In this document: piece after piece, positions 4,164-64,000 of the stretch | Layout of the letters: each line of letters starts with the position of its first letter | How positions within the stretch are numbered: the first letter of the stretch is position 1 | Sequence record: MH675927.1 | Length of the DNA stretch: 64,000 nucleotides | Source: Escherichia phage vB_vPM_PD114 | Direction: 5' to 3' (one strand) | The notes under the pieces: generated by a model | Seen by the model: the letters and a program-made list of their open reading frames with translations, nothing else | Databases searched by the model: none | Told to the model about the DNA's origin: nothing | Made by a program: the position numbers and the translations under genes

Positions 4164-4165
4164 TT

Positions 4166-4189
4166 AAAAGGGGCTTTCGCCCCTTTATA
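4166..4189 (+). terminator. rho-independent terminator (GGGGC-TTTC-GCCCC hairpin plus T-run)
   Basis: Stem GGGGC/GCCCC followed by TTTAT, just after stop of 1749-4163; same hairpin recurs at 15324-15337. Confidence 0.6.
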
Positions 4190-4203
4190 AAAGGAGTAGT
4201 AAA

Positions 4204-9246: not shown

Positions 9247-9253
9247 TATATCT

Positions 9254-9285
9254 CCTTCAAAGAAAAGGAGCCGTTAGGCTCCTTA
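9254..9285 (-). terminator. stem-loop, putative terminator or attenuator
   Basis: AAGGAGCC-GTTA-GGCTCCTT hairpin between stop of 9307-10254 and start of the methyltransferase; followed on the minus strand by TTCTTT. Confidence 0.4.
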
Positions 9286-9306
9286 TATTCACACAATATT
9301 TAATTA

Positions 9307-10712: not shown

Positions 10713-11306
10713 TTAAATCTTAAATTCTTCGTTGTTAAATGAATCCAGTGTACGTACTTCTGGTTCTTTGGGAATGAAAACGTCTTTTACAAAGCGGAAC
10801 ATAGGGAAACGTTCTGCCATTTTACGGACGTGTGCTTCTTTACCTGTGTATCGGTGATTAATAGTGCAAATATTAGTTTTCAATGCAAACTCAAAATCTG
10901 GATGATATACATAATTTTGACCATCCCAGTAACACAGGCAAATAGCTACGTCAAAGTTCCATACGATTTCACTGCGTACACCCTCTTCCATGATCATAAA
11001 GTTAAACTTAAGGTCTTTATAGTATGCTTCAAATACCCATTTCAAATGTGGTAGTTCGGCATAAGTGTGTTCTGTTTGCTTAGTAAGTTGTTTAACATTA
11101 CGTGCACCAACACCCAACATCAAAAACTTCTCTACTAGCACGAGTGTATTGTGGTTAGGCATACGCAAGTAAATGTCAATGTCTTGTGCAGGTTTCTCTA
11201 ATCGCCAATCACGTACAGCGCCGCCAGCTACAATTGCAAACGGATCTACCAGTTGGCACATACGTAATACTTCTAAAGCGCGTACTTTTTGATCTTCAAT
11301 ATTCAT
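10713..11306 (-). CDS. nucleotidyltransferase of the poly(A) polymerase / tRNA CCA-adding head-domain family
   Basis: Motif VAGGAVRDWRL...DIDIY matches the GGxVRD...DxD signature of PolyA_pol/CCA-adding enzymes; start placed at ATG 11306 (RBS AGGAGA) rather than the upstream GTG. Confidence 0.6.
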   Translation of the reverse strand: MNIEDQKVRALEVLRMCQLVDPFAIVAGGAVRDWRLEKPAQDIDIYLRMPNHNTLVLVEKFLMLGVGARNVKQLTKQTEHTYAELPHLKWVFEAYYKDLKFNFMIMEEGVRSEIVWNFDVAICLCYWDGQNYVYHPDFEFALKTNICTINHRYTGKEAHVRKMAERFPMFRFVKDVFIPKEPEVRTLDSFNNEEFKI

Positions 11307-51864: not shown

Positions 51865-52416
51865 ATGCGGATTACTGACAAGTATGTGTTCTTCTTCTCG
51901 GCAAAAGATGAATTTAGCAACTGGTATCTATCATCTTTTATTGAACCTTTAGCTCCCAAGTATAATAATTCTATTACAAGTTCTGTCGAATTTACTTGTG
52001 TGGAACAATATATGATGTGGAGAAAAGCATGTTTGTTTTATGATTACAATATTGCATCTTCTATTTTAACCGGAGATCTAAGATATACAGGAGAAAAAGA
52101 ACAAGCATATTATAAACGACTAGGCAGATCAGTTAAAGATTATGATGAAGATACTTGGACTTCTTTACGGGAGAAGATTGTCAAGCGTGGTTTGTATCTT
52201 AAATACACACAAAATGAAGATCTCAAAAATAAACTTATCGCTTACGCAGATAAGGAGTTCGTAGAGGCAAGCCCCTATGATTCTATTTATGGTATCAAAA
52301 TGGGGATGTGGGATCGTGATGTTGAAAACAAGGATTGTTGGAAAGGACAAAATCTTTTAGGAAAATGGCATACAGACCTTGCTGTTTATCTAAAAACACA
52401 ATCTGATATTTCCTGA
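51865..52416 (+). CDS. NADAR (YbiA/DUF1768) family protein, predicted ADP-ribosyl N-glycosidase
   Basis: VFFFSAKDEFSNW...FTCVEQYMMWRKA...RLGRSV...ASPYDSIYGIKMG...GQNLLGK colinear with the YbiA/NADAR signature; RBS AAGGAGG. Confidence 0.75.
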   Translation: MRITDKYVFFFSAKDEFSNWYLSSFIEPLAPKYNNSITSSVEFTCVEQYMMWRKACLFYDYNIASSILTGDLRYTGEKEQAYYKRLGRSVKDYDEDTWTSLREKIVKRGLYLKYTQNEDLKNKLIAYADKEFVEASPYDSIYGIKMGMWDRDVENKDCWKGQNLLGKWHTDLAVYLKTQSDIS

Positions 52417-52634
52417 TATTTTGAAAATTTTTATTTTTATAAAAAGGGGTGTGGGTTTCATGTACGGAAATCCACCCTCTGAATAATATATCCAGAGTAA
52501 GTAGTATTCTGTACTCTGTTAATAAAGTATTTAATTTGTTTGTTGGACTATGATATCTGATCTTTAAAAGGCATACTATCTCTTAACTACTACTTATAAC
52601 AAAACAGTAAAATCCTTTTTATAAAAAGTACAAA

Positions 52635-52840
52635 ATTATTTAAAGTTTTTACAGATTTTCGGGTACAAATTTTGAAAATGAAAAGTTCAAGTTTGGTCAA
52701 AATTATTTAAAGTTTTTGTACGTATTTCTATCCAGATTTTGAAAATGAAAACTTCAATTTTTTAAAAATTCCCCAGTTTATTTAAAGTTTTTTTGCCTTT
52801 TTCCGTAGAAAAATCAAAAATGAAAAGTTCAATTTCGTGT
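52635..52840. repeat. three tandem direct repeats of about 66-76 bp
   Basis: Each unit has TTATTTAAAGTTTTT (52635, 52701, 52777) and TTTTGAAAATGAAAAGTTCAA (52671, 52737, 52811). Confidence 0.7.
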
Positions 52841-52855
52841 TTTTATAGGTGTGTT

Positions 52856-52967
52856 AATGAGAATCATTTTCGTTTGTAAATGAGAATCATTATCATTTAA
52901 CTATGTAAGTGATAATCATTCTCAGTAAGAGAATGAGAATCATTAGCAAATGAGAATTTTTCTCATT
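52856..52967. promoter_or_regulatory. cluster of Fur-box-like palindromic sites (AATGAGAATCATT family)
   Basis: At least five copies; AATGAGAATCATTATC (52879-52894) matches 15/16 positions of the E. coli Fur consensus; perfect palindrome AATGAGAA-TTT-TTCTCATT at 52948-52966. Confidence 0.45.
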
Positions 52968-53229
52968 TACAGAATAACGCGCAGGGGCGGTGTTTGTCTC
53001 GCGCTCCCGTGTCCCCTCGCCATACAATAAGAATAGCATAACCAACAACAAAAGCAAGCGATTATTTTTATCTTTACATTTCTTTACAAATTTATTTTAG
53101 ACGAGCTACCGGCGATCAACCTTCCAACCAGTGCCCCCTGGTATGTTAGCCCCGCCTTTACGCCGTGGGGGTGGCGTTTCCTCTTCTGTATGTAAAACAG
53201 TATAAGCCCGATCCCTGGGCTTGTCAAGA

Positions 53230-53496
53230 TTATTTTTTGTTTTCTTGCCAGGATAGGACACCTAACCAAAAATACATGTCGCCCCGCGCCCCTGGTGGGA
53301 TCTTGCTTTCCCCGCCGCCACTGCAAGCCCATAGATAACCATTTACGAACGTATCAAAGTGATCTATCTCTTCCACCTTATGATCGCCCAGGTTGAGAAC
53401 GGTTTCAACCTTTAAGCCCGTTGCGCTTGCTACCTGGTGCACCGTGCCGCCTTGCCAGCCCAGTGAGTGCATGAGATGTAAAGGAGTATTTGTCAT
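53230..53496 (-). CDS. hypothetical protein in a G+C-rich island
   Basis: 88-aa ORF with RBS AAAGGG; region is visibly more G+C-rich than its surroundings; no motif recognised. Confidence 0.35.
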   Translation of the reverse strand: MTNTPLHLMHSLGWQGGTVHQVASATGLKVETVLNLGDHKVEEIDHFDTFVNGYLWACSGGGESKIPPGARGDMYFWLGVLSWQENKK

Positions 53497-53607
53497 GGTA
53501 TCGCCCTTTCTTTGTTGTGCGCCCTGGTTGGCGCGGTAGAAAGATGATAGCCGTTTCCTTTATAGATAGCAAGCAAAAAAGAAATGAAAAAAGATTAAAA
53601 AAAATGG

Positions 53608-53636
53608 TTGACGTTCCTCACCTGGTAGCGTAGTAT
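53608..53636 (+). promoter_or_regulatory. sigma70-like promoter (TTGACG-17-TAGTAT), first of the rightward early-gene array
   Basis: Near-consensus hexamers with 17-bp spacer about 130 nt upstream of 53765. Confidence 0.5.
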
Positions 53637-53764
53637 TCATCTTGTCGAGGGGCGGCAAGGCACAACGACAATAAACAATAGGCGGGTGCAATGCAAGACG
53701 GGCAAAGGTGAGGATCTCCACAATCCACCGTCACAATAACATTACTTATAAAAGGTTGATAACA

Positions 53765-53869
53765 ATGATCAAGAAAGAAAATAGCTTGACGGTTGGAACG
53801 ATTAACGCTATCATTCTTGCCGTTCCCTTTTGGATTGTAGTGTCAGTTATTATTTCAATCATTCTATAA
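53765..53869 (+). CDS. small membrane peptide (34 aa; not in ORF track)
   Basis: ATG with AAAGG RBS; hydrophobic. Confidence 0.3.
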   Translation: MIKKENSLTVGTINAIILAVPFWIVVSVIISIIL

Positions 53870-53879
53870 GGCGCACACT

Positions 53880-54161
53880 ATGAGCAAGGTAATTAGTCAT
53901 AAAGAGTTAAGCCCTACTCTTTCAATGAGTGAGTGCACCGATGGCTTTTGGCTGTATGATGATACGCGCGGCATGAATTTAGCTATGCGTGAAAAAACAG
54001 AAGAGGCGGCGTATATTGAAGCCCTGGAATACTACCAGGAACGACTAAAGGAAGTAGAAAACAATTATAATAACCTAAAAACAAAGGTAGATCATTTTAT
54101 CAGCCAGGTGGCAGATGACGACGATGATCACTATTGCGAGCGGTGCGGATCATACAGCTAA
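53880..54161 (+). CDS. hypothetical protein
   Basis: 93 aa; acidic DDDDD tract and C-terminal CERCG. Confidence 0.45.
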   Translation: MSKVISHKELSPTLSMSECTDGFWLYDDTRGMNLAMREKTEEAAYIEALEYYQERLKEVENNYNNLKTKVDHFISQVADDDDDHYCERCGSYS

Positions 54162-54181
54162 AATTATTTTTAAAAATATTC

Positions 54182-54242
54182 TTGACAACGTTTTTTAAAC
54201 TGATAAGATGTATCACATAGGGCGGCGGAATACTTCCCCGCC
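54182..54242 (+). promoter_or_regulatory. sigma70 promoter (TTGACA-16-TAAGAT, extended TG) plus GC-rich leader hairpin
   Basis: TTGACA 54182-54187, TAAGAT 54204-54209, hairpin GGGCGGCGGAATACTTCCCCGCC 54220-54242, then RBS and ATG 54265; 40-nt promoter sequence repeated at 56520. Confidence 0.6.
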
Positions 54243-54264
54243 AAAACAAAAAAAGGGTAATGCA

Positions 54265-54627
54265 ATGAGCAAGCAAATCAATACTATCATGTTTAATCTG
54301 GTATCTTTCCGCGACGATATGAAAAATTTACCACGTGAAACGGTTGATATTCATGTTTCAGCTTATCGCGCCCTTATTGATATGTTACCGCTAAAACGTG
54401 ATCAACATGCCGCTAATATGATGCTTAATGCTATGCTTAAAAAGATGATTCAAACGGATCTCACCCTGGCGTATGAGTATCAAGGGCGCTTATATGCAAC
54501 TTACAACAAGGCGGTACCTGGTCTGGGAAGTACCGAAGAGTTGCACGGCTTAAACCTGGATCAAAACACTTGGGATAGTATGCGCCGCGTTATGGTATGG
54601 GCCGAAAGCGGTAAAATTTACGAATAA
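54265..54627 (+). CDS. hypothetical protein
   Basis: Start at ATG 54265 (RBS AAGGG) downstream of promoter and hairpin; the longer track ORF begins inside the promoter. Confidence 0.5.
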   Translation: MSKQINTIMFNLVSFRDDMKNLPRETVDIHVSAYRALIDMLPLKRDQHAANMMLNAMLKKMIQTDLTLAYEYQGRLYATYNKAVPGLGSTEELHGLNLDQNTWDSMRRVMVWAESGKIYE

Positions 54628-54633
54628 AAACGG

Positions 54634-54686
54634 TTGACATTGCACTAAAACCTGATAAGCTATCTTAAAGCGGGAACTATTCCCGC
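54634..54686 (+). promoter_or_regulatory. sigma70 promoter (TTGACA-16-TAAGCT) plus leader hairpin GCGGGAA-CTA-TTCCCGC
   Basis: TTGACA 54634-54639; hairpin 54670-54686. Confidence 0.55.
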
Positions 54687-54705
54687 TTACATAGGATAAA
54701 ACTTT

Positions 54706-54852
54706 ATGAAACAATATGTAATGAGTATTCATACCAAAAACGGCGCTACTGTTACGACTCCGGCACGGTTTGCACTTGTAAACCGTTGCAACAGACTAAA
54801 ACGAGAGCTAAAAAATAACCGTGCAACGGGCTTTAAACGCTGGGGAGGATAA
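54706..54852 (+). CDS. small hypothetical basic protein (48 aa; not in ORF track)
   Basis: ATG 54706 after promoter and hairpin; stop 2 nt before the next gene start. Confidence 0.35.
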   Translation: MKQYVMSIHTKNGATVTTPARFALVNRCNRLKRELKNNRATGFKRWGG

Positions 54853-54854
54853 TC

Positions 54855-55115
54855 TTGTTTTTTCTAAAAGTTTTTGATAATGTGATCGCTTTTGAACATG
54901 CTACAACGTTCGACCTGGCGAGATATGCTATCAGGTTTAAAGATAATGTTTATCCCCGTGCTGGCGGCGGTTACACTATTTTTAATCATCGCAACGCGCA
55001 ACTGACTGATGTAACTAATCCAGATCCTGGAGTGTATCGGATAGGCTGGCTACCGTCAAAAGACGCTGCAAGCATGTTTAAGGTATGTAAACTACTAACA
55101 GAAGAGGCGAACTAG
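54855..55115 (+). CDS. hypothetical protein
   Basis: TTG start with RBS GGAGGAT; 86 aa. Confidence 0.45.
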   Translation: MFFLKVFDNVIAFEHATTFDLARYAIRFKDNVYPRAGGGYTIFNHRNAQLTDVTNPDPGVYRIGWLPSKDAASMFKVCKLLTEEAN

Positions 55116-55116
55116 C

Positions 55117-55671
55117 ATGGGGCGTGAATATGTGATCCAGTCCTGGGTAAAGCATGACGCAAATGATCCGCGCATAATACCAGATGACATGATCGATCAC
55201 ATGGTAGGGTATAGCGGGGAGCAGATAGGAAATCGAGCGGCAAAGAGCAACGGCAATACCAGGACGAGATCCGTTCGCCCTGGATGGCTGGCGAATGGTA
55301 ACGCTGACATTGCAAGCGCCGCAGATCCAAGCGATGACGCTAAAAATAATCCCTTGTACAGCATTGATCCGGCTTTTAAGGTGTTGGAAGAGTATCCCGC
55401 TAAATTAGCCGCACTAGATAAGGCATACGCAGAAAAGCGCATGGCATGGACTGTATACAACACCGCTAAAATGGTGCTAGATGCAAAACTAATTAAAGCC
55501 CAGGAGAAGATCAATAAACTTGTTACCATAGCGCAAAAGGAAGACCAGGGCGACCAGGAGGAAGAGGAAGAAATCATGCCTATCCTGGAAGAGGAAGAGA
55601 TCCAGCCATACATGCCGACGGAAGAGGAAAAAAGACAAGCCTTAAAAAATTATGAAAATTGTGTTGTGTAA
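55117..55671 (+). CDS. hypothetical protein with acidic C-terminal tail
   Basis: 184 aa; EEEEE-rich C-terminus. Confidence 0.45.
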   Translation: MGREYVIQSWVKHDANDPRIIPDDMIDHMVGYSGEQIGNRAAKSNGNTRTRSVRPGWLANGNADIASAADPSDDAKNNPLYSIDPAFKVLEEYPAKLAALDKAYAEKRMAWTVYNTAKMVLDAKLIKAQEKINKLVTIAQKEDQGDQEEEEEIMPILEEEEIQPYMPTEEEKRQALKNYENCVV

Positions 55672-55674
55672 GGC

Positions 55675-55729
55675 TTGACATATGCAAACAAGCCCCGTAA
55701 TATATACCACATAGAGCGGGGCAACGCCT
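55675..55729 (+). promoter_or_regulatory. sigma70 promoter (TTGACA-17-TAATAT) with degenerate GC leader element
   Basis: TTGACA 55675-55680, TAATAT 55698-55703, CATAGAGCGGGGCAACGCC downstream. Confidence 0.45.
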
Positions 55730-55751
55730 CAAAGGTGAAATAAAAAATCAC

Positions 55752-55779
55752 TTGACACCTGAAATCAGTAAGCTATAAT
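55752..55779 (+). promoter_or_regulatory. consensus sigma70 promoter (TTGACA-16-TATAAT)
   Basis: Perfect -35 and -10 hexamers at 55752-55757 and 55774-55779, upstream of ATG 55817. Confidence 0.65.
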
Positions 55780-55816
55780 GCTTATATAAATTAAAGCGTT
55801 ACTAAGGAATAAAATC

Positions 55817-56182
55817 ATGGCTAAAAATATCAATGTTTCTGCTTATGCTACCCTGGCTAACACTGCTAAAATTGAACTATCCAGCATTGAAGCGGTACAT
55901 ATTAGCGCCCGTCGCTGGTTTCAAAAGTCTTATGGTAATACTTATTTCTCTTTGATGGTTGACGTTGAGATCGGCGGTAAACTGATTGAAGTCGTTAACG
56001 TTCCGTTTCAATATGGTTATGGTGATCATTTTGATACCGTTGCCCTAGAAGAGTTTAGCAAGGTTATCAACCTGGAAGGTAAAGACTTTTCAAATTATGC
56101 TTACCTTTCCCGTTTTTGCCGTGACAATGGGATCGCTGTATACAGTCATGCAAGCGATGTTAAACGTAAAAAAGATTTATAA
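55817..56182 (+). CDS. hypothetical protein
   Basis: 121 aa. Confidence 0.5.
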   Translation: MAKNINVSAYATLANTAKIELSSIEAVHISARRWFQKSYGNTYFSLMVDVEIGGKLIEVVNVPFQYGYGDHFDTVALEEFSKVINLEGKDFSNYAYLSRFCRDNGIAVYSHASDVKRKKDL

Positions 56183-56188
56183 AAAGCA

Positions 56189-56246
56189 TTGACAGCACGA
56201 ATAAAAAGCATATAATACTTATATCGAGAGCGGGAATAGTTCCCGC
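56189..56246 (+). promoter_or_regulatory. consensus sigma70 promoter (TTGACA-16-TATAAT) plus leader hairpin GCGGGAA-TAG-TTCCCGC
   Basis: TTGACA 56189-56194, TATAAT 56211-56216, hairpin 56230-56246. Confidence 0.65.
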
Positions 56247-56270
56247 CTCACTGAAAAAGAGATTAACATC

Positions 56271-56510
56271 ATGGCTAAATCTAAAATGTACAACGGTCAC
56301 AAAAATAAAACTCATTGGAATGTAAGCCTTTGGATTAATAACGATCCAGGTTTTTATAATATGGCAAAAGAATTTATAGCCGTGAACAACAATAAAGATA
56401 ACGCCGCGCGTGAAATGATGTCACTACTTAACGAAATGGGCCAAACTACTACGCCAGATGGCTATAAATTCAGTAAAACCAGTATCCGCGCCGCTATGGT
56501 AGGAATGTAA
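56271..56510 (+). CDS. hypothetical protein
   Basis: 79 aa. Confidence 0.5.
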   Translation: MAKSKMYNGHKNKTHWNVSLWINNDPGFYNMAKEFIAVNNNKDNAAREMMSLLNEMGQTTTPDGYKFSKTSIRAAMVGM

Positions 56511-56519
56511 TAAAAACAG

Positions 56520-56579
56520 TTGACAACGTTTTTTAAACTGATAAGATGTATCACATAGGGCGGGAAATGGTTTCCCGCC
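56520..56579 (+). promoter_or_regulatory. sigma70 promoter (TTGACA-16-TAAGAT) plus 21-bp palindrome GGCGGGAAATGGTTTCCCGCC
   Basis: Promoter nearly identical over 40 nt to the one at 54182; palindrome 56559-56579. Confidence 0.6.
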
Positions 56580-56601
56580 AAATCAAAGAAAGGTTAACAT
56601 T

Positions 56602-56829
56602 ATGGCTATCGTTATTGTTCGCGTATCCGGTACGGTTGGGATCTCCCAGGTAGTAGCAGTTATCACCGAGAAGAAAGGGGATGATCTTCACTCCTCTTTG
56701 AATAGCTGGGCGGTCGCTAACTTTGGGCAATGGTCGAGCGTTGAGTACATCGAAGCATACCAGGTGCCAACGATTAGCCTAACCGATCTAAATGTTGATC
56801 GCTTGTTGTGCCTGGATCAATTAAACTAA
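56602..56829 (+). CDS. hypothetical protein
   Basis: 75 aa. Confidence 0.5.
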   Translation: MAIVIVRVSGTVGISQVVAVITEKKGDDLHSSLNSWAVANFGQWSSVEYIEAYQVPTISLTDLNVDRLLCLDQLN

Positions 56830-56837
56830 AAATAATA

Positions 56838-56895
56838 TTGACAAGATAACTAAAATCAGTAAAATGTAATGCATAGGGCGGCACTATTGCCGCCC
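56838..56895 (+). promoter_or_regulatory. sigma70 promoter (TTGACA-16-TAAAAT) plus leader hairpin GGGCGGCA-CTAT-TGCCGCCC
   Basis: TTGACA 56838-56843; hairpin 56876-56895. Confidence 0.55.
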
Positions 56896-56916
56896 CTAGT
56901 GAGAGAGATTATCAAA

Positions 56917-57132
56917 ATGGCTAATATCCGCACACTGTTAAAAAATGCAAGTCAAGTTTTATTTTCAGATGACGAGTATTTCAACAAAGACATTACAGGC
57001 GTGAAAAATTTAAAAGACGTGAAGGATGTTATCGGTATCCGTGGATCTTTACGTAAAGATGACATATACGGTAACAAGGTGCAATATAAATTGTCAAAAG
57101 ATTATGATTTTACTTTGACAATTATTTCATAA
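56917..57132 (+). CDS. hypothetical protein
   Basis: Start at ATG 56917 after the leader hairpin; the longer track ORF would start inside the hairpin. Confidence 0.5.
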   Translation: MANIRTLLKNASQVLFSDDEYFNKDITGVKNLKDVKDVIGIRGSLRKDDIYGNKVQYKLSKDYDFTLTIIS

Positions 57133-57138
57133 AACTAC

Positions 57139-57199
57139 TTGCAAACCTGGTAAAATAAAGTAAACTATATTCATTAAGGCGGTAGAATAGCCCACCGCC
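57139..57199 (+). promoter_or_regulatory. sigma70-like promoter (TTGCAA-16-TAAACT) plus leader hairpin GGCGGT...ACCGCC
   Basis: TTGCAA 57139-57144; hairpin 57178-57199. Confidence 0.45.
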
Positions 57200-57222
57200 T
57201 AACAAAGAGAAGAGGAAACATC

Positions 57223-57393
57223 ATGATTACTTTCGCCACCCGTGAAGCCGCTCGCAACGTTGCACGTAAAGTTAACGCCGCCAACCTGGGCGCTACGCTT
57301 AAAGCACCGGTTAAAGATGAATCAGGAAAATGGATCTTTCCTGGTCTGCGTCACGCTGATAAGCTGGGAACATTAACGTTAAAAAATAAATAA
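57223..57393 (+). CDS. small hypothetical basic protein (56 aa; not in ORF track)
   Basis: ATG 57223 with RBS AGAGGAAA after promoter and hairpin. Confidence 0.4.
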   Translation: MITFATREAARNVARKVNAANLGATLKAPVKDESGKWIFPGLRHADKLGTLTLKNK

Positions 57394-57400
57394 TATTCGC

Positions 57401-57459
57401 TTGACAGTAGCATCATTTATAAGTAAAGTAACAACAACGGCGGGAAATGGTTTCCCGCC
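57401..57459 (+). promoter_or_regulatory. sigma70 promoter (TTGACA-17-TAAAGT) plus palindrome GGCGGGAAATGGTTTCCCGCC
   Basis: TTGACA 57401-57406; palindrome 57439-57459. Confidence 0.55.
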
Positions 57460-57479
57460 ATCAATAAAGAGATAAGATT

Positions 57480-57839
57480 ATGAAATCAGCAAAAGCAATT
57501 AAAACTTACATTTTATCGGCTATTTCTTTTGATGGTACTACAACCGAAAAAGAAAAGATCACCGAACTGATGCGCCGTTTTAACTCTGAATACTGGTATC
57601 CCGATAATCAAAAACGTTACAATCATAACATGACCAAGGCGATAGCCTCATGGTTACAAGGTTTACCGTCAGAAGTCAATATTGCTTTTGATTATAATGA
57701 GATCGATCACTTGTTAATTGAATGGAAGTGCATAAAAGAAACAAGCAAAGAAACAACCGTTACCCGTGAGCGGGAAAATTATTGGTTATATATTGCAAGC
57801 ATGATCGTAATCCTGGCAAAACAGCATAACGTGGCGTAA
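57480..57839 (+). CDS. hypothetical protein
   Basis: 119 aa. Confidence 0.5.
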   Translation: MKSAKAIKTYILSAISFDGTTTEKEKITELMRRFNSEYWYPDNQKRYNHNMTKAIASWLQGLPSEVNIAFDYNEIDHLLIEWKCIKETSKETTVTRERENYWLYIASMIVILAKQHNVA

Positions 57840-57854
57840 TTAAGAGGAAGAAAC

Positions 57855-57992
57855 ATGAACGCATCACAGCAGATCGAAAAATTCAACCGCAGCAAGGCGC
57901 GTAAAGATTGGAACGAAGAGATCACCAAAAAAGGCGATAAGCGGAACAAAACAAAAAGAGATCGCAGCACAAAAAGACACTGGAACGAATAA
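57855..57992 (+). CDS. small hypothetical basic protein (45 aa; not in ORF track)
   Basis: ATG 57855 with RBS GAGGAAG; K/R-rich; followed by a terminator. Confidence 0.35.
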   Translation: MNASQQIEKFNRSKARKDWNEEITKKGDKRNKTKRDRSTKRHWNE

Positions 57993-57994
57993 CA

Positions 57995-58021
57995 AAAAGG
58001 GCGCAATAAGCGCCCTTTTAG
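57995..58021 (+). terminator. rho-independent terminator (GGGCGC-AATA-GCGCCC)
   Basis: Hairpin with A-run before and T-run after; same hairpin at 62880. Confidence 0.7.
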
Positions 58022-58110
58022 CTTATATAGAGGCTTGTTACCCATAGGCAATGGTAACGCCAGGGCAAGCCTATAAATCAACGTTAGACGGCTTTACAGG
58101 AGCTTTAAAA

Positions 58111-58293
58111 ATGAGATTAGAAGAAATAAGCAAGGCACTAGCCCAGGGGCAAAGGTTATGCGCCCGATATCGTGATCAATATGGCTTCATAACTAGCGGC
58201 GTGATCCTGGGGATTGAAGGCAATAAAATTTTTATTGACACGTTGAAAAACGTTGTATATAGTGACAATATAATCTCAATAAAACATATATGA
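58111..58293 (+). CDS. hypothetical protein
   Basis: Start at ATG 58111 (RBS CAGGAG); 60 aa. Confidence 0.4.
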   Translation: MRLEEISKALAQGQRLCARYRDQYGFITSGVILGIEGNKIFIDTLKNVVYSDNIISIKHI

Positions 58294-58301
58294 GGCAAGA
58301 A

Positions 58302-58703
58302 ATGAAAAAATTATTGATCGCTGGTTTAATCTCTTTTGGCATGGTTGGAACATCTAGCGCGGCGATATCCTCCACAATAGCAGAATTAAGCGCCGTTGAT
58401 GCAATGGAAAACGTCATGATCATTAATAACGCGATCCCCGATGAAATCATGGAGGATTCTCACATGATCGCTTATGGTGCTGTTACACAATTAACGGCAA
58501 AAATAGATAAATCTATTGTTAATGGCTTAAATGAAGATGTACCATGTGAAATTATTACCAGTGTGCTAACGACTCAAAATTTTACGCCGTGGCTAAAAAG
58601 TATTCAAAAGGTACACAGCACCGCCGCAGATCGTAGCAATGAAAAACTAGTGTCAGCACTTGCAACGTATACCCTAGCAAAATGTACCGAAATAAAAGAT
58701 TGA
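58302..58703 (+). CDS. hypothetical secreted protein
   Basis: Signal peptide MKKLLIAGLISFGMVGTSSAA; start ATG 58302 (RBS GAGG). Confidence 0.5.
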   Translation: MKKLLIAGLISFGMVGTSSAAISSTIAELSAVDAMENVMIINNAIPDEIMEDSHMIAYGAVTQLTAKIDKSIVNGLNEDVPCEIITSVLTTQNFTPWLKSIQKVHSTAADRSNEKLVSALATYTLAKCTEIKD

Positions 58704-58728
58704 CAACATAGAAAGCACGTTATAAGAT
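58700..58728 (+). promoter_or_regulatory. sigma70 promoter (TTGACA-17-TAAGAT)
   Basis: TTGACA 58700-58705, TAAGAT 58723-58728, followed by RBS AAAGGAGA and ATG 58751. Confidence 0.55.
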
Positions 58729-58750
58729 ACACACAACAAAGGAGAACTAC

Positions 58751-59053
58751 ATGAACGGCATAGCTAAAACGTTTTTTCTTTTTTCTGGTGTAAATGATCC
58801 ATCAATAAAAGTCGATAGTGTAAAAGAAAACAACACTATCACCGCTAAATTGTTTCAAGATGAAACAAATAACGTGCTAATCATTAATCTTAAAGAAATA
58901 ACGAAAGGTTATTATACTATTGCTTACCATGCGATCTATCATGCGGGTACTAGTGAGGAAGTGCAAACAAGCAACAACGAAAGCGCGGCGCTACCTGGTG
59001 ATCTGGTGCTGGGCGTTATCAGTTTAATTGTCAATGATTTTTTTAAGGAGTAA
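58751..59053 (+). CDS. hypothetical protein
   Basis: 100 aa. Confidence 0.5.
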   Translation: MNGIAKTFFLFSGVNDPSIKVDSVKENNTITAKLFQDETNNVLIINLKEITKGYYTIAYHAIYHAGTSEEVQTSNNESAALPGDLVLGVISLIVNDFFKE

Positions 59054-59057
59054 AACC

Positions 59058-59153
59058 ATGCCCTATTTACATTTATTTTTCGGTATCTTATTGACAGGAT
59101 CTTTTTTCTTCTGTATGCTTGTTTCTATTGTAAACCACGTTTTAAGACATTAA
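59058..59153 (+). CDS. small hydrophobic peptide (31 aa; not in ORF track)
   Basis: ATG with RBS AAGGAG; single TM helix. Confidence 0.25.
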   Translation: MPYLHLFFGILLTGSFFFCMLVSIVNHVLRH

Positions 59154-59162
59154 GGAAACAGC

Positions 59163-59282
59163 ATGAAAATTATTCCCGTACAGTATAGCGTAATAAATCC
59201 AGCATATGAGGAAGGAAGGAAAACAAGCATGGTTTTATGTTGTATTGCTACTATAGCCATGTTATTATACATTGTGTTTTAA
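59163..59282 (+). CDS. small hydrophobic peptide (39 aa; not in ORF track)
   Basis: ATG with RBS AAGGAAA; C-terminal TM helix. Confidence 0.25.
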   Translation: MKIIPVQYSVINPAYEEGRKTSMVLCCIATIAMLLYIVF

Positions 59283-59311
59283 TAGGTTTTATAGTTGTAC
59301 GCTTTAAAGGC

Positions 59312-59363
59312 TTGACAATTTTTTGTTATGCTTTAAACTATATCTTGAAAACGGCAAAGGCCG
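59312..59363 (+). promoter_or_regulatory. sigma70-like promoter (TTGACA-16-TAAACT) plus short leader hairpin CGGC-AAAG-GCCG
   Basis: TTGACA 59312-59317; hairpin 59352-59363. Confidence 0.45.
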
Positions 59364-59382
59364 CAAACAAAAGGGTAAAATT

Positions 59383-59706
59383 ATGAAATCTGTGATCGGT
59401 GTTTATTTGGATAACTCTGATTTTTTCTATCATCGTGCGCGTTTCCTTGATGCGATTGAAATGATAGAATCAGGCTTTAAAGAATACCGCCTTGCACATG
59501 ATGACCTGGAAGCATTACAGGGCAATAGTGTTTTTACATTGCAAGCGAAAGCACTATGCAAAAGCCGGATCGACATTGCGAGCAAAAAGATAGAACGCGG
59601 CATGTCCTGGTTGCGCACCGCAGAAATCAACATGGGGCAATGGTACGGCGAAAACTTAGAAAATAAACGCCCTTTTGTAAATGTAGAAAATCTTAAAGAT
59701 TATTGA
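59383..59706 (+). CDS. hypothetical protein
   Basis: Start at ATG 59383 (RBS AAAAGGG); 107 aa. Confidence 0.5.
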   Translation: MKSVIGVYLDNSDFFYHRARFLDAIEMIESGFKEYRLAHDDLEALQGNSVFTLQAKALCKSRIDIASKKIERGMSWLRTAEINMGQWYGENLENKRPFVNVENLKDY

Positions 59707-59768
59707 TTGACAGCACACCTGATAAGTAATATATTGTATCTCATAGAGCGGGGAAATGGTTTCCCCGC
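59706..59768 (+). promoter_or_regulatory. sigma70 promoter (TTGACA-17-TATATT) plus leader hairpin GCGGGGAAA-TGGT-TTTCCCCGC
   Basis: TTGACA 59706-59711, TATATT 59729-59734, hairpin 59747-59768. Confidence 0.55.
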
Positions 59769-59789
59769 CTAACAGAAGAGAGAAAAATC

Positions 59790-60074
59790 ATGAAAATCAC
59801 AAAAAGCCTAACTAATTATGCAGCACGTCGCGGATTATGTTTAACCGTTGAAAACTTAGGGAAAGAAGACTTTTTGTGTTTTTGGGAGCTTGAAAATGAT
59901 TGCGAGTGGATGTTTTCTTATTCTATCTGCGAAGATCAAAACGGTTGTTTGTTAACCTGGCGCGGTAATATCTATTTACCGGAAGAAATTAAAGAAGAGT
60001 TACCAGGTACGATCATGACAGAGAGACAGCTTAAGGAAGTGATCAATTTTGTAGGGCAAAACATTAAAAAATAA
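59790..60074 (+). CDS. hypothetical protein
   Basis: 94 aa. Confidence 0.5.
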   Translation: MKITKSLTNYAARRGLCLTVENLGKEDFLCFWELENDCEWMFSYSICEDQNGCLLTWRGNIYLPEEIKEELPGTIMTERQLKEVINFVGQNIKK

Positions 60075-60075
60075 T

Positions 60076-60136
60076 TTGACAGCACGCAAACAACGTAGTA
60101 AAGTTTATTACATAGAGCGGTGGACCATTCCGCCGC
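60076..60136 (+). promoter_or_regulatory. sigma70 promoter (TTGACA-17-TAAAGT) plus leader hairpin GCGGTGGA-CCAT-TCCGCCGC
   Basis: TTGACA 60076-60081, TAAAGT 60099-60104, hairpin 60117-60136 (one mismatch in stem). Confidence 0.5.
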
Positions 60137-60159
60137 TCACAACAGAAGAGAAACAAATC

Positions 60160-60330
60160 ATGATCCCGACTATGTTTTATGTATCGCGCAAAGGTCACAA
60201 TATTTTTTGGTCTGAAGATTTAAATGAAGCCATGACGTTTGCCCGTAATCGTGTTGCTATCGGTGGCGTTAACATCACCGTAACCGATGAAAACGGCATT
60301 GAATACTATAACGGCGACGATGAAGAATAA
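60160..60330 (+). CDS. hypothetical protein
   Basis: Start at ATG 60160 after the hairpin; 56 aa. Confidence 0.45.
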   Translation: MIPTMFYVSRKGHNIFWSEDLNEAMTFARNRVAIGGVNITVTDENGIEYYNGDDEE

Positions 60331-60337
60331 TTAATGA

Positions 60338-60357
60338 GGCGGGGGAGTATTCCCGCC
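60338..60357 (+). promoter_or_regulatory. intergenic GC hairpin without an obvious promoter (GGCGGG-GGAGTATT-CCCGCC)
   Basis: Same hairpin family as the leader elements, but directly between two genes of one transcription unit. Confidence 0.4.
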
Positions 60358-60376
60358 ATTAATAAAGAGGTAAATC

Positions 60377-60652
60377 ATGAAAATATCATTGGACGTTGCA
60401 ATCAAGGCCATCGAATCCGGTTACACCCTGGTAAAAGATGATAAGGCTAAAATAGTGCATCATGTTAACAAGGAAACAGGCGAAAGCATGATCACATATA
60501 AAGCCGCCTACTTTCTCCAATCAGTAGCAGATCCGCGCGTACAACGCCAGGTTACGGCGGCTATTGCTAAAAAATTATGTGCTTTACAGGGTACAAGTTT
60601 TAACGAGATCGCCCCGTGTTTTGACTGGTCGAGCTTGAAAAAATTAGTTTGA
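60377..60652 (+). CDS. hypothetical protein
   Basis: 91 aa; RBS AAAGAGG. Confidence 0.5.
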   Translation: MKISLDVAIKAIESGYTLVKDDKAKIVHHVNKETGESMITYKAAYFLQSVADPRVQRQVTAAIAKKLCALQGTSFNEIAPCFDWSSLKKLV

Positions 60653-60710
60653 CAACAGTCAACAATCTGGTAAAGTGTACTACATAGGGCGGGGCAATAA
60701 GGCAACGCCC
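60649..60710 (+). promoter_or_regulatory. sigma70 promoter (TTGACA-16-TAAAGT) plus GC-rich leader element
   Basis: TTGACA 60649-60654, TAAAGT 60671-60676, GGGCGGGGCAATAAGGCAACGCCC 60687-60710. Confidence 0.5.
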
Positions 60711-60728
60711 ATTAATGATGGTAGAATC

Positions 60729-60833
60729 ATGTTAGAGAAAATTTTCACGGTTGTAATAGTGGGCCTGGCGTTATCGGTTGGAGTGGTTGCAACTATGGCT
60801 AATATGATCCTATCTTCCCACGGTATCGGTTAA
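60729..60833 (+). CDS. small hydrophobic peptide (34 aa; not in ORF track)
   Basis: ATG 60729; single TM helix. Confidence 0.3.
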   Translation: MLEKIFTVVIVGLALSVGVVATMANMILSSHGIG

Positions 60834-60847
60834 AAGAGAGACACAGC

Positions 60848-61234
60848 ATGAAAACAGAAATCATTATTGAAATCATCAACGGTTATAAAGAAGCCTTTAT
60901 TTTTGCTGAATCAGCAAGGGATCATGAAGGTAATTTTATTGAAAACTTAGACGATTATGATTTTTCTCCTAGCGCGGATCAACGGATCGCCCAGGATGTA
61001 ACAGCCTTTATTAATGCTAATCTTGCCGCTATCTCTGAGGCAATGAGCGACGGCGCAACAGCCAACCAGATCGGGAATGATTTACATTTTACTCGTAACG
61101 ATCATGGCGTTGGTTTTTGGGATCGCCCTGAAATATACACTACTAACACAGCAAACCGTTTAACTAATGCAGCTAAATTAATGCCATCGGTGCATGCTTA
61201 CATTGGTGAAGATAATTTGATTTATATTGAATAA
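60848..61234 (+). CDS. hypothetical protein
   Basis: 128 aa; RBS AAAGAGAGA. Confidence 0.5.
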   Translation: MKTEIIIEIINGYKEAFIFAESARDHEGNFIENLDDYDFSPSADQRIAQDVTAFINANLAAISEAMSDGATANQIGNDLHFTRNDHGVGFWDRPEIYTTNTANRLTNAAKLMPSVHAYIGEDNLIYIE

Positions 61235-61240
61235 AAAGTG

Positions 61241-61299
61241 TTGACACCGATCCCCAATATGGTATTATTTACCACGTAGGCGGGAAATGGTTTCCCGCC
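61241..61299 (+). promoter_or_regulatory. sigma70 promoter (TTGACA-16-TATTAT) plus palindrome GGCGGGAAATGGTTTCCCGCC
   Basis: TTGACA 61241-61246; palindrome 61279-61299 (third identical copy). Confidence 0.55.
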
Positions 61300-61322
61300 A
61301 GGTAATCAAAAAGGTAAATACT

Positions 61323-61712
61323 ATGCGCAACCTGGTTTCTGTTTCTAACGTTGAAAAATTCCAATCCTTGCAGGGTATCGTTAACAACGTAGCGCCTTTT
61401 TTAGTCAATGGCTTGATTGCAAAGATGAAAAATAAACATCATGCGGCATGGTCTGCTTACTGCTTTGATAATGATGAAAAAGCGGCTGAAATGATGTTAA
61501 ATATGCTGCTAGACAGTGTAGAATCATCTTTACCGGAAAACATCGCAGAAGAGATCACCTATCGTTATAATATGGCGATCACTTACCAGGAAGTAGCACA
61601 GTTTAACATGATGGATGAAGATGACCAACAGGATCAGGAAATGTTTTGGGAGTATGCTGATCGTCAATCGGCTTTTGATGAAAAATTAGCGATGTATTAT
61701 AACGAATATTAA
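61323..61712 (+). CDS. hypothetical protein
   Basis: Start at ATG 61323 (RBS AAAAAGG) after the palindrome; 129 aa. Confidence 0.5.
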   Translation: MRNLVSVSNVEKFQSLQGIVNNVAPFLVNGLIAKMKNKHHAAWSAYCFDNDEKAAEMMLNMLLDSVESSLPENIAEEITYRYNMAITYQEVAQFNMMDEDDQQDQEMFWEYADRQSAFDEKLAMYYNEY

Positions 61713-61724
61713 TACACGGTAAAA

Positions 61725-61754
61725 GAAAGGGGCGCACTAAGCGCCCTTTTTTGT
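61725..61754 (+). terminator. rho-independent terminator (GGGGCGC-ACTA-AGCGCCC)
   Basis: Hairpin followed by TTTTTTG. Confidence 0.7.
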
Positions 61755-62097
61755 ATTCTTTTTTCACGATAGAAACAACACGTAAAGAATAGGCGTAAAG
61801 GTGGCGTAAAACCATCTAAAACCGATTGTAACCGCTTAAACAAGGTAGGGATGATTAATCACCTTACCAGGACGAAAAAGCCGTTATAAAGCTATCTAGA
61901 GCGTTTAAAGCACATAGGAAATAATTTGCTTTTTATCTTGCCTTTTATTCTGCTTTTGATTATTATTATGGAACGGGCGGCACCTGGGGACAGGGGAAGA
62001 TAATCACCGGAAGATCCCGCTATATATTGATAGCTAACATCTATCAAACAACAAAACATCAAAGGAATAAACTATCAAATCTTTACAATCTCACCTA

Positions 62098-62156
62098 TTG
62101 ACACCGGATCGCCCTTATACTAAGATGTATCACGTAGGCGGGAAGTGGTTTCCCGC
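62098..62156 (+). promoter_or_regulatory. sigma70 promoter (TTGACA-17-TAAGAT) plus leader hairpin GCGGGAA-GTGG-TTCCCGC
   Basis: TTGACA 62098-62103, TAAGAT 62121-62126, hairpin 62138-62156. Confidence 0.6.
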
Positions 62157-62175
62157 TCAATATAGGAATCATATC

Positions 62176-62406
62176 ATGATCGAACAAATTAAACGCGCTG
62201 AGGCTATTAACGGCAATGTGATCTATTCTGTCAGCAATAACGAAAAAGGCGTACCTTATGCAGCGGTGATAGTACAGCCTGACGGTGATTATTGGTTTAC
62301 TGTATACGGATCTTATTCTTTTGGGCGTCCAGTACATGATAAAATTTTGAAAGTAGCTAATCCCACCGGCAAGAATATCACAGTAGAAAAATTCTATGAA
62401 AAATAA
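62176..62406 (+). CDS. hypothetical protein
   Basis: Start at ATG 62176 after the hairpin; 76 aa. Confidence 0.5.
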   Translation: MIEQIKRAEAINGNVIYSVSNNEKGVPYAAVIVQPDGDYWFTVYGSYSFGRPVHDKILKVANPTGKNITVEKFYEK

Positions 62407-62407
62407 C

Positions 62408-62436
62408 TTGCTTTATAGCCTCTGTTAATTTATAGT
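62408..62436 (+). promoter_or_regulatory. sigma70-like promoter (TTGCTT-17-TATAGT)
   Basis: Hexamers at 62408-62413 and 62431-62436 upstream of ATG 62482. Confidence 0.45.
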
Positions 62437-62481
62437 TATCGTGTAGGGCAAGCAATTTTAAACGGTAAACGAGGAATCTCC

Positions 62482-62865
62482 ATGAGCAATATCATCAACC
62501 TGGCGGCTACTGTAAACGGTAAAGATTTTAATGGCGCTGTAGATCGTGATCCTATGTGGTGCTTATCCGTATTCAAAGGTGACTTGGTTGAAGTTAGAAC
62601 AACCGAAGGTTATAGCGACGATTATAAATGTGAGATTCATTTGCACAACTGGTACACGGGTAAAACTTATGCGCTGAATCATGCGTTTATCGGGAAAATT
62701 GAATATCGCGAGATGATCGACGAGGAAACCGGGCAAGATTTTAGCGATTATGTTTATATTCGTTCAGAAACATTAGCCGAACGTTTGATCGAGAAAATGA
62801 AAGCAAAAAATAAAATTAATTTAGCTCATTGGCTTGATATAACAAACGATCCGGCTTATAAGTAA
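62482..62865 (+). CDS. hypothetical protein
   Basis: 127 aa; RBS GAGGAA; last gene before the terminator and AT-rich region. Confidence 0.5.
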   Translation: MSNIINLAATVNGKDFNGAVDRDPMWCLSVFKGDLVEVRTTEGYSDDYKCEIHLHNWYTGKTYALNHAFIGKIEYREMIDEETGQDFSDYVYIRSETLAERLIEKMKAKNKINLAHWLDITNDPAYK

Positions 62866-62877
62866 ATAACATTTCAC

Positions 62878-62907
62878 ACAAGGGCGCAATAAGCGCCCTT
62901 TCTTTTT
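62878..62907 (+). terminator. rho-independent terminator (GGGCGC-AATA-GCGCCC)
   Basis: Same hairpin as at 57997; followed by TTTCTTTTT. Confidence 0.7.
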
Positions 62908-63111
62908 ACCTCAATAAAGATGATATCTTTTACCTATCAAAAACGTTCACCGAAAAAGTGAATAGATCGCGGTATCGAGCTAATCAAGGAGCAGATGAAC
63001 AACCATACCATGAAGATCATAAGGCGCTTACAACGTGTTTTAGACCGCTTATTTTTAATTTCTTCATGCAACTATCTGGCAAAAACAGCCTTTTTCTTGT
63101 CTTTCCTCTTA

Positions 63112-63184
63112 AATGATAATCATTCTTATTTATAGCTGATTATTTATGCAATAAACTGAATAATGTAATAATGATAATCATTCT
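63112..63184. promoter_or_regulatory. two Fur-box-like sites (AATGATAATCATTCTTA)
   Basis: ATAATGATAATCATTCT (63168-63184) matches 16/17 positions of the E. coli Fur consensus; second copy at 63112-63128. Confidence 0.45.
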
Positions 63185-63911
63185 TAACTTAAGACCATCT
63201 AACCTATAAAATAATAAGTTATCTAACTAAATTAAAACTAATTATCTCACCTTTATTTATAACTTACTGTTACTATGTCATTGATAACCTTATATTAAAC
63301 AACAATAACTAATATAAATCATTACTAAGCTAAATATAATATATCTAACCTTTAAAACTATAACTATAATCTATTGAATTATTGCACAAAGTAACTATTA
63401 AATCGTTAGTAACATTACTAAATAATTCATATCCTATCTATTTATAATCTAACCTTTATCTTCCTATCTATTACCTAAGTAATCATTTCATACAATAATT
63501 ATAACAAGAAATATAATTAGCAAGCGTATCATTAGCAGCCTATGCCGGACACATAGGCGGCTAATAATAACGCAACTACACACCTCACATAATAACCATC
63601 ACCGATAGTTATTATCTGTGCTTATGTAGCTTGCAACAACTGCAAGCGCAACAATATACATGGTATATTGTATTCCCTTACATTGTTGCGGTGCGTTATT
63701 ATTAGCTAATGTTTGGAACATTGGCTATAATATAAGCTATCCAATAATAAACATAGTGAATAATGACCCTGATGATCATAATGCGCCACCTTCCAGGGGG
63801 CGCTATGTGAACACAAAGAAATCTTTCTTGTCAAGAAAAATATTACCATTATTGCGCAAAATTATTTACATCTGAATAGATGGTTTTTCATACTATTGCC
63901 CCCAATACTAT

Positions 63912-64000
63912 CCCTATTTGTTGTTATTTGTTGGATAAAATTATCCCTATTTGTTGCAGTATAAACTATTATTTGTTGCCCTAACTATTGCTATTTGTTG
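63912..64000. repeat. iteron-like direct repeats (C)TATTTGTTG, at least five copies, running to the window edge
   Basis: CCCTATTTGTTG at 63912 and 63945; TTATTTGTTG at 63924 and 63969; CTATTTGTTG at 63991. Confidence 0.6.

Follow-up and report, generated by a model that had tools for sequence, protein, structure and literature searches.

Fur-like operator arrays at the non-coding borders of the early-gene block in phi92-like Escherichia phages

The window analysed here, a stretch of 64,000 nucleotides from Escherichia phage vB_vPM_PD114 (MH675927.1), contains a block of small early genes that is bordered on both sides by clusters of palindromes resembling the binding sites of the host protein Fur. 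Fur boxes are the textbook operators of iron-related genes. When positions 52000-56000 were used in a megablast search, they matched phi92-like E. coli myophages (Justusliebigvirus, Stephanstirmvirinae) with 94-96% identity, and the annotation of phi92 was projected onto the window for gene assignment. According to this projection gp223 ends at 52416 and is followed by a 1.46-kb gap without credible genes, after which the early block starts. Cluster A lies within this gap, while cluster B lies to the right of the early block. The boxes are given below, with scores from the E. coli K-12 Fur matrix that is described further on.

52856-52874: Fur-like box A1, AATGAGAATCATTTTCGTT; 21.6 bits, an exact copy of the 13-mer motif
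52879-52897: Fur-like box A2, AATGAGAATCATTATCATT; 25.0 bits, the best score in the window and above that of every K-12 training site
52908-52926: Fur-like box A3, AGTGATAATCATTCTCAGT; 13.2 bits, 15/19 of the classical consensus
52926-52944: weaker site overlapping A4 with a 6-bp offset; 9.5 bits
52932-52950: Fur-like box A4, AATGAGAATCATTAGCAAA; 17.5 bits
52949-52967: innermost Fur-like box A5, AATGAGAATTTTTCTCATT; 17.9 bits, the sole box present in every relative
63112-63130: Fur-like box B1, AATGATAATCATTCTTATT; 22.5 bits, forming a 17-nt exact direct repeat with B2
63164-63182: site overlapping B2 with a 6-bp offset; 11.9 bits
63170-63188: Fur-like box B2, AATGATAATCATTCTTAAC; 14.8 bits

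The motif AATGA(G/T)AATCATT is found in five exact copies, starting at 52856, 52879, 52932, 63112, and 63170, and in one copy with a single mismatch at 52908. If one mismatch is allowed, nine strand-matches are obtained where 0.54 are expected, and none of 100 shuffled sequences reached this number. At the same threshold no copy is found in the whole 64 kb beyond 52856-52944 and the two at 63112 and 63170. The 19-mer GATAATGATAATCATTATC matches four times in the window with up to three mismatches, compared to 0.03 expected. Six sites in the window score at least 15 bits with the Fur matrix, while 0.13 are expected from a first-order Markov model, and five of these six are inside the two clusters. 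Isolated matches are seen far from the clusters at 4882-4900 (15.4 bits) and 36678-36696 (14.3 bits), and their number fits chance. The main boxes are mostly 17-29 bp apart, but each cluster also contains a pair overlapping with a 6-bp offset (52926/52932 and 63164/63170). Box A5 reads AATGAGAA-TTT-TTCTCATT and is thus a perfect 8-nt inverted repeat with a 3-nt centre. The preliminary description of this DNA had proposed motif copies at both borders of the early block and a perfect palindrome around TTT, and both are borne out. Its match counts to the Fur consensus, 15/16 and 16/17, are right for sub-windows of the site; when the full consensus is counted they become 16/19.

To obtain an independent model of the Fur site, a palindromic 19-bp matrix was derived by de novo expectation-maximisation from 13 intergenic regions under Fur control in E. 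coli K-12 (NC_000913.3), namely those of ryhB, fepA-fes, fepD-entS, fepB-entC, fecA, fecI, fhuA, cirA, fhuF, gpmA, sodA, tonB, and yoeA. The consensus of this matrix is AATGATAATCATTATCATT (17.3 bits), and its register is identical to that of the phage motif. The seven phage boxes score 13.2-25.0 bits, compared to 8.7-24.6 bits for the best K-12 site of each promoter. Position 6/14 of the matrix is nearly uninformative, and a G or C at this position in the phage boxes, such as the G in AATGAGAAT, is thus tolerated; the ryhB, gpmA, fhuA, and fecI sites share these variants. The 45 distinct boxes collected from 21 genomes vary least at G4 (98%), C16 (92%), T12/T13 (98%), and A7 (98%). According to Deng et al. 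(2015), Arg57 of Fur binds the G and Tyr56 contacts the thymines of the TT. The least variable positions of the phage boxes correspond to these directly contacted bases.

The phage sites share several properties with known Fur operators. They are 19-bp inverted repeats within the score range of the K-12 operators, they keep the Arg57 G and the Tyr56 TT in AT-rich boxes, and they are clustered with 6-bp-offset overlaps, even though most of the main boxes are more widely spaced. Within the Fur clusters of E. coli, sites may overlap with an offset of 3 or 6 bp, typically 6; the clusters span 19-142 bp, and 83% of them overlap a sigma-70 promoter (Chen et al., 2007, PMC2189734). Compared to the clusters of fhuF, yoeA, ryhB, fepA-fes, and iucA, those of the phage have the same 19-bp palindromic motif, with scores that equal or exceed those of the best chromosomal sites, and several sites within approximately 80-110 bp, some of them overlapping with the 6-bp offset. 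They differ in being found in the long non-coding borders of a virulent phage with no iron-related gene directly downstream, in that most boxes are discrete, and in not overlapping a strong sigma-70 promoter.

The arrays are conserved. An anchor, GTTAGCCCCGCCTTTWCGCCGT, within the non-coding element to the right of cluster A (see below) was found in 21 rV5/phi92-like genomes belonging to Stephanstirmvirinae, Vequintavirinae, and their relatives, and the annotated hosts of these phages include Escherichia, Klebsiella, Cronobacter, and Salmonella. In 20 of these genomes a box orthologous to A5, scoring 15.6-26.2 bits, keeps a fixed distance to the anchor, which is -189 to -198 in most and -235 in the TH18-type. 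In the last genome, the Raoultella-phage-Ro1-like IMG/VR contig L154 (145,759 bp), the boxes are displaced by an insertion of about 740 bp that splits the conserved element (-960 to 0 from the anchor), with a 198-codon, homing-endonuclease-like reading frame on the minus strand. The left side of this locus holds a second, incomplete and diverged copy of the element, which has a TTGACA-17-CATAAT promoter of its own. Extra boxes are found at -218/-220, -247/-249, and -285, and the number of boxes varies from one to six. The sequences of the boxes vary among the lineages, yet they keep both the motif and the fixed offset. In another lineage, represented by L152, the conserved element is followed about 9.8-10 kb downstream by further boxes, at the position of cluster B.

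Further copies, which the preliminary description had suggested looking for throughout the genome, were found as a third cluster in the terminal-repeat region of the related phage PD211. In this complete genome of a close relative (149.5 kb) the sites of at least 12 bits form three clusters within 13 kb, two of which correspond to A and B, while the two isolated sites outside them correspond to the chance level. PD211 also has 6-bp-offset pairs, at 68407/68413 and 81115/81121. Both phi92 and PD211 have two to three additional boxes within or beside the terminal repeat, just past the end of the window, and in phi92 two boxes are located inside the annotated repeat. The number of strong sites is 9-11 per genome.

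Cluster A also matched T5-like phages in a distant blastn search. In T5 (NC_005859) the Fur matrix picks out seven sites between 9552 and 9715. The best of them reaches 25.4 bits, and 6-bp-offset pairs are seen at 9552/9558, 9656/9662, and 9691/9697. The 19-mer at 9656-9674 is identical to A2 (52879-52897). The T5 array lies in the annotated injection stop signal (iss, 9140-10149), about 260 nt past the terminator closing the right pre-early operon (9275-9296), and it spans the estimated shear point for first-step transfer at approximately 9618. Directly after the array follow a GC-rich, terminator-like hairpin (9729-9746) and then the major nick at 9748. T5 has one more Fur-matrix site near its left end (231-249), and a strong minus-strand promoter (10879..10851) aims at the array. 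This part of T5 has been described as Repeat Region 3, with DRC repeats and the palindromes palE-palJ, conserved in all T5-like phages but of unknown function; the injection stop was ascribed to DnaA boxes, and Fur was never mentioned (Davison, bioRxiv 10.1101/866236).

The borders in the window resemble the T5 iss in having an array of AATGAGAATCATT-type palindromes, one 19-mer being identical, in a repeat-rich non-coding border after an immediate-early block. Both also have a GC-rich hairpin after the array, an array placed beyond the terminator of a block transcribed by the host RNA polymerase, and a strong promoter firing toward the array from the far side. When it comes to DnaA boxes this likeness ends, as paired boxes are missing from the borders in the window; TTWTNCACA is found neither in 52417-53880 nor in 62866-64000, and the window as a whole has nine matches compared to 10.9 expected. 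The T5 iss works together with A1 and A2, while the phi92-like genome has no homologues of these. A tblastn search of PD211 with 17 first-step-transfer proteins and T5.018 identified no homologues of the T5 pre-early proteins (A1, A2, dmp etc.), the best E-value being 0.044. Finally, the T5 iss is located within a 10.2-kb terminal repeat, whereas the right terminal repeat of phi92 is 343 bp (148270-148612) and excludes the early block.

Six T5-like metagenomic contigs contain five to seven such sites each. Contig L004 has repeats and palindromes like those of the T5 iss at 2150-2690, with Fur-box scores of top quality. Arrays of five to nine strong Fur-like boxes, about 30-50 bp apart, are also found in viral contigs that are unrelated to T5 and phi92:

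L070: array at 5780-5910
L125: array at 2953-3240
L091: array at 983-1127
L122: array at 11959-12285
L039: array at 2542-2751
L065: array at 74-310
L040: array at 4039-4270
L022: array at 5708-5945

Contigs L125 and L091 are podophage-like, and in both of them the array is found near the terminase genes.

The array is thus common to phages that are otherwise unrelated, that is phi92-like phages, T5-like phages, and the phages represented by these other contigs. A search of the phi92-like genome with an approximate Fur sequence as query, serving as a negative screen only, gave no phage-encoded Fur homologue. Since no T5 pre-early protein is shared and no Fur homologue is encoded by the phage, a shared host protein is the simplest explanation for the shared motif. 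The preliminary description had left the choice between host Fur and a phage repressor with a similar half-site. The fit to the K-12 matrix, the conservation of the bases contacted by Fur, and the occurrence of the array in unrelated phages favour host Fur, while the phage repressor lost ground. The phage sites are therefore probably real Fur operators, and binding of Fur as such is the part of the interpretation in which we have good confidence.

Phages are known to carry sites for host proteins. The stx1 promoter has a phage-borne Fur box in front of a cargo gene, and IHF sites serve as architectural elements at cos and attP of lambda. In the full-text literature searched, the only phage Fur boxes were those of sitABCD on lambdoid phages, which is temperate cargo, with a Fur box upstream of the operon (Mathieu et al., 2020, PMC6969025). 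As for sitABCD, host Fur sites on the phages studied here would put a part of their expression in the host Fur regulon. However, the sitABCD and stx1 boxes are each a lone operator at the promoter of a cargo gene for iron uptake or virulence in temperate phages, while the present arrays are located in non-coding parts of virulent phage genomes and have no iron-related gene close by. The arrays resemble the IHF sites at cos and attP, as well as the DnaA boxes that have been proposed to act in the T5 iss, in being candidate cis-elements by which an abundant DNA-binding protein of the host is brought to a functional border of the phage genome. They differ from these in that Fur has not been described in an architectural role, and in that the DNA binding of Fur is Fe2+-dependent.

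What the arrays might do depends on their surroundings. The other features of the borders and of the block between them are:

52616-52835: three direct repeats of 67-75 bp, ATTTAAAGTTTTT...GAAAATGAAAAGTTCAA, immediately left of cluster A within the 1.46-kb border
52970-52975, plus strand: -10-like CAGAAT just right of A5, an invariant nnGAAT in the alignments of relatives
52979-53020: GC-rich hairpin beside cluster A, found by folding
53071-53196: highly conserved non-coding element, near-invariant in a 19-genome alignment
53199-53227 (53227..53199), minus strand: consensus sigma-70 promoter TTGACA-17-TATACT, 11/12, of the early-promoter class
53880-62865, plus strand: early gene block, equivalents of gp225-gp248 according to open reading frames and the phi92 annotation; small genes without a known function, the majority having a promoter each
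62880-62900, plus strand: intrinsic terminator closing the early block, an 8-pair stem followed by a T-run

In the left border the three direct repeats correspond to a repeat_region in the annotation of phage inny. Most relatives have a TTGAAT 18 nt upstream of the CAGAAT, with the proximal box between the two hexamers. TTGAAT-18-CAGAAT would in most relatives be a weak rightward promoter with an operator in its spacer; the match is weak, 8/12 in the relatives. The outer stem and the inner CCGG hairpin of the GC-rich hairpin are kept in divergent lineages even if their sequences differ. As the hairpin is followed by UUAUUCUG on the minus strand, it resembles the terminator of a leftward transcript. 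An A-rich linker separates it from the conserved element, which displays 83-85% identity to distant Klebsiella, Cronobacter, and Pectobacterium phages in blastn searches. The minus-strand promoter fires leftward through this element toward the hairpin and cluster A, and it is likely to be real since the relatives keep both hexamers and the distance of 17 nt between them, while the sequence of the spacer varies.

The alignment of the element contains one compensatory A-U/G-C pair, found as the one version in eight sequences and as the other in nine, and RNAalifold and pair counts gave equal helices and one compensatory pair on either strand. Rfam searches of 52000-64000 gave only matches at chance level, including a miRNA family on the palindromes at E = 0.05, and no tRNA or tmRNA matching the element was found when these were searched for. 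The element (53071-53196) is probably a structured RNA, and together with its promoter (53071-53227) and the hairpin it probably encodes an undescribed early small RNA that is common to Stephanstirmvirinae and Vequintavirinae.

The early block makes up about 7% of the genome and adjoins a terminus; the start of the phi92 right terminal repeat projects to approximately the final bases of the window. Nearly every small early gene is preceded by a plus-strand promoter that has a perfect TTGACA and a spacer of 16-17 nt, about 18 in total between 53500 and 62950, and the block is predicted to be transcribed by the host RNA polymerase. A PHROG search with 20 proteins from the block gave only families of unknown function, no family for one of the proteins, and no repressor-like family. 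No Fur-matrix site of at least 12 bits is found in 53000-63100. Six weak matches (8.5-11.6 bits) occur within the block compared to about 1.2 expected, a slight excess.

Cluster B is located about 210 nt past the terminator of the block. A weak promoter-like sequence, TTAACT-17-TAAAAT at 63184-63212, matches at 9/12 in a promoter scan, and its -35 overlaps box B2. Past the cluster follows a very AT-rich and repeat-rich stretch leading to the terminal repeat. AT-rich sequence with ATCTAACC-type repeats and then a large inverted repeat make up 63190-63710, between cluster B and the terminal repeat; the 15-nt perfect arms of the inverted repeat are at 63560-63574 and 63692-63706, and its inner palindromes are GC-rich. 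At least three copies of 20-mers containing (C)TATTTGTTG are seen at 63904-64000, where the terminal repeat of phi92 begins, and these may be part of a signal for end formation or packaging.

The preliminary description had proposed that Fur ties the expression of the early genes to iron. As stated this is not supported, since the early genes have their own TTGACA promoters and no boxes, and therefore cannot be the target. The arrays lie outside the block and beyond terminators, which limits any control to transcripts of the borders or to the passage of RNA polymerase across them. Their position outside terminators at both ends of this presumably very actively transcribed block, and the operator in the spacer of the putative promoter in relatives, point to control of transcription at the borders. 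We therefore tentatively favour, at somewhat less than even confidence, that the boxes are high-affinity operators for host Fur-Fe2+ that control border transcription in an iron-dependent manner. Fur binding, the effect on promoter or RNA polymerase, and the dependence on iron are all inferred from the DNA sequence.

In an iron-replete cell Fur dimers would load cooperatively on the incoming DNA and cover about 110 bp of the left border and about 80 bp of the right. Fur on the innermost operator, which in most relatives lies between the -35-like TTGAAT and the -10-like CAGAAT, would silence the weak border promoter, which if active would yield an antisense RNA across the conserved element. Bound just beyond the terminator-like hairpin of the conserved transcript, Fur might also block RNA polymerase leaving the early block. 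During iron starvation apo-Fur would dissociate and the border would open. The effect could be promoter repression, an RNA polymerase roadblock, or both.

Several observations weigh against iron-dependent control at the borders. In the window itself the -35 counterpart upstream of CAGAAT is degenerate (GCAAAT), the A at hexamer position 2 of nnGAAT is missing in four lineages, and a standard promoter scan found no promoter of at least 9/12 overlapping cluster A. In the PVP-SE1- and TH18-type phages the border locus, as far as sampled, holds a single box, which would make a weak roadblock, and the 17-29 bp distances mean that the boxes do not form a single continuous array in 6-bp phase. It would also be odd for an essential border function to be tied to the iron status of the host. 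When it comes to the identity of the ligand, the information profiles of the 45 phage boxes and the K-12 matrix are correlated (Spearman 0.68), but this agreement is partly circular because the boxes were collected with the Fur matrix. Compared to the K-12 matrix, the phage motif has a stronger preference for C at positions 10 and 14, and the boxes could owe this either to common descent or to a ligand that differs somewhat from Fur.

Of the other explanations, the one that survives best keeps Fur as the ligand but gives it an architectural task, either while the DNA enters the cell or when its ends are formed and packaged. The array would then be the phi92-like counterpart of the T5 iss and mark the end of the segment that enters and is expressed first, or it would aid the terminase near the terminal repeat as IHF does at lambda cos. 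The T5 array is located in the iss, across the shear point and beside the nick; the early block is comparable to the first-step-transfer segment of T5 in making up its small part of the genome next to a terminus; boxes are found within the terminal repeat of phi92; and the arrays of two unrelated podophage-like contigs are near terminase genes. However, the non-coding gap has no DnaA boxes and the phi92-like genome no homologues of A1 and A2, and the terminal repeat of phi92 does not comprise the whole block. Furthermore, cytoplasmic Fur could bind only DNA that has already entered, and the universally conserved box is located 10 kb away from the terminal repeat. We regard such a role as rather doubtful, judged by analogy with T5 and lambda.

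Somewhat less probable still is a ligand other than Fur, that is a phage repressor or another host factor with a merely Fur-like half-site. The sharper preference of the phage motif at positions 10 and 14, favouring AATCATTCTCATT, would be in line with this, as would the many small proteins of unknown function encoded by the early block and the annotation of the first gene past the region in CR9 as a DNA-binding protein. On the other hand, all informative positions agree with a matrix trained solely on E. coli Fur promoters, and the array is common to phages without detectable shared pre-early proteins and to unrelated metagenomic phages. A phage protein made after entry cannot account for sites that are needed at entry, and for a repressor in particular the PHROG searches gave no candidate family.

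It is quite improbable that the arrays act as a sponge, where hundreds of replicating genomes with about ten strong sites each titrate Fur and derepress the iron uptake of the host, for example to supply the phage ribonucleotide reductase. Multicopy Fur boxes are known to titrate Fur, which is the principle of the Fur titration assay, and each genome has 9-11 strong sites. Still, a decoy needs neither a fixed position nor a single conserved proximal site, and a sponge thus fits poorly with one conserved box being positionally fixed. The single box of the PVP-SE1- and TH18-types, where the scan covered the border locus, is also difficult to reconcile with titration, and the benefit would come late in a short lytic cycle. 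For T5, a late derepression of its own receptor FhuA would be counter-productive. Least probable of all is that the palindromes act structurally without any sequence-specific protein, for instance as cruciforms or as sites of recombination or nicking, and resemble Fur boxes by coincidence: they are inverted repeats in a repeat-rich region, and the T5 equivalents have been taken as palindromes of unknown function or possible restriction-like cleavage sites (Davison, bioRxiv 10.1101/866236), but a stable cruciform would need arms longer than the 8-9 bp seen here, many of the boxes keep the Fur-contact bases in spite of being imperfect as palindromes, and a chance fit of 45 distinct boxes from unrelated phages to a 17-bit matrix is not credible.

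Full-text searches, with subscription-only literature outside their scope, gave no link between Fur and either the border regions of virulent phages or the T5 iss, and neither the T5 preprint by Davison, recent papers on T5 and BF23, nor the rV5 genome paper connects Fur to these phage regions. What appears to be new is thus the presence of top-scoring and conserved Fur-like arrays in the non-coding borders of virulent phages, comprising two subfamilies of large myophages, the T5 group, and metagenomic phages. A bolder view, which we consider unlikely as it stands, is that Fur operator arrays represent a widespread, undescribed cis-element of phages, with Fe2+-Fur as the border protein of the segment that is expressed first and perhaps enters first; the T5 iss would then at least partly be a Fur array, and phi92-like infections would have a staged, iron-sensing start. 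With similarly low confidence, the use of such arrays may extend to virulent phages of Enterobacterales and other Gammaproteobacteria, including rV5/phi92-like and T5-like phages and the unclassified podophage-like contigs.

The arrays offer a testable candidate for the host factor at the T5 iss, a question that dates from the 1960s-80s. If Fur binds to them, these phages would either read the iron status of the host or borrow Fur structurally at the start of the infection. If true, this would be relevant to phage therapy in iron-limited body sites.

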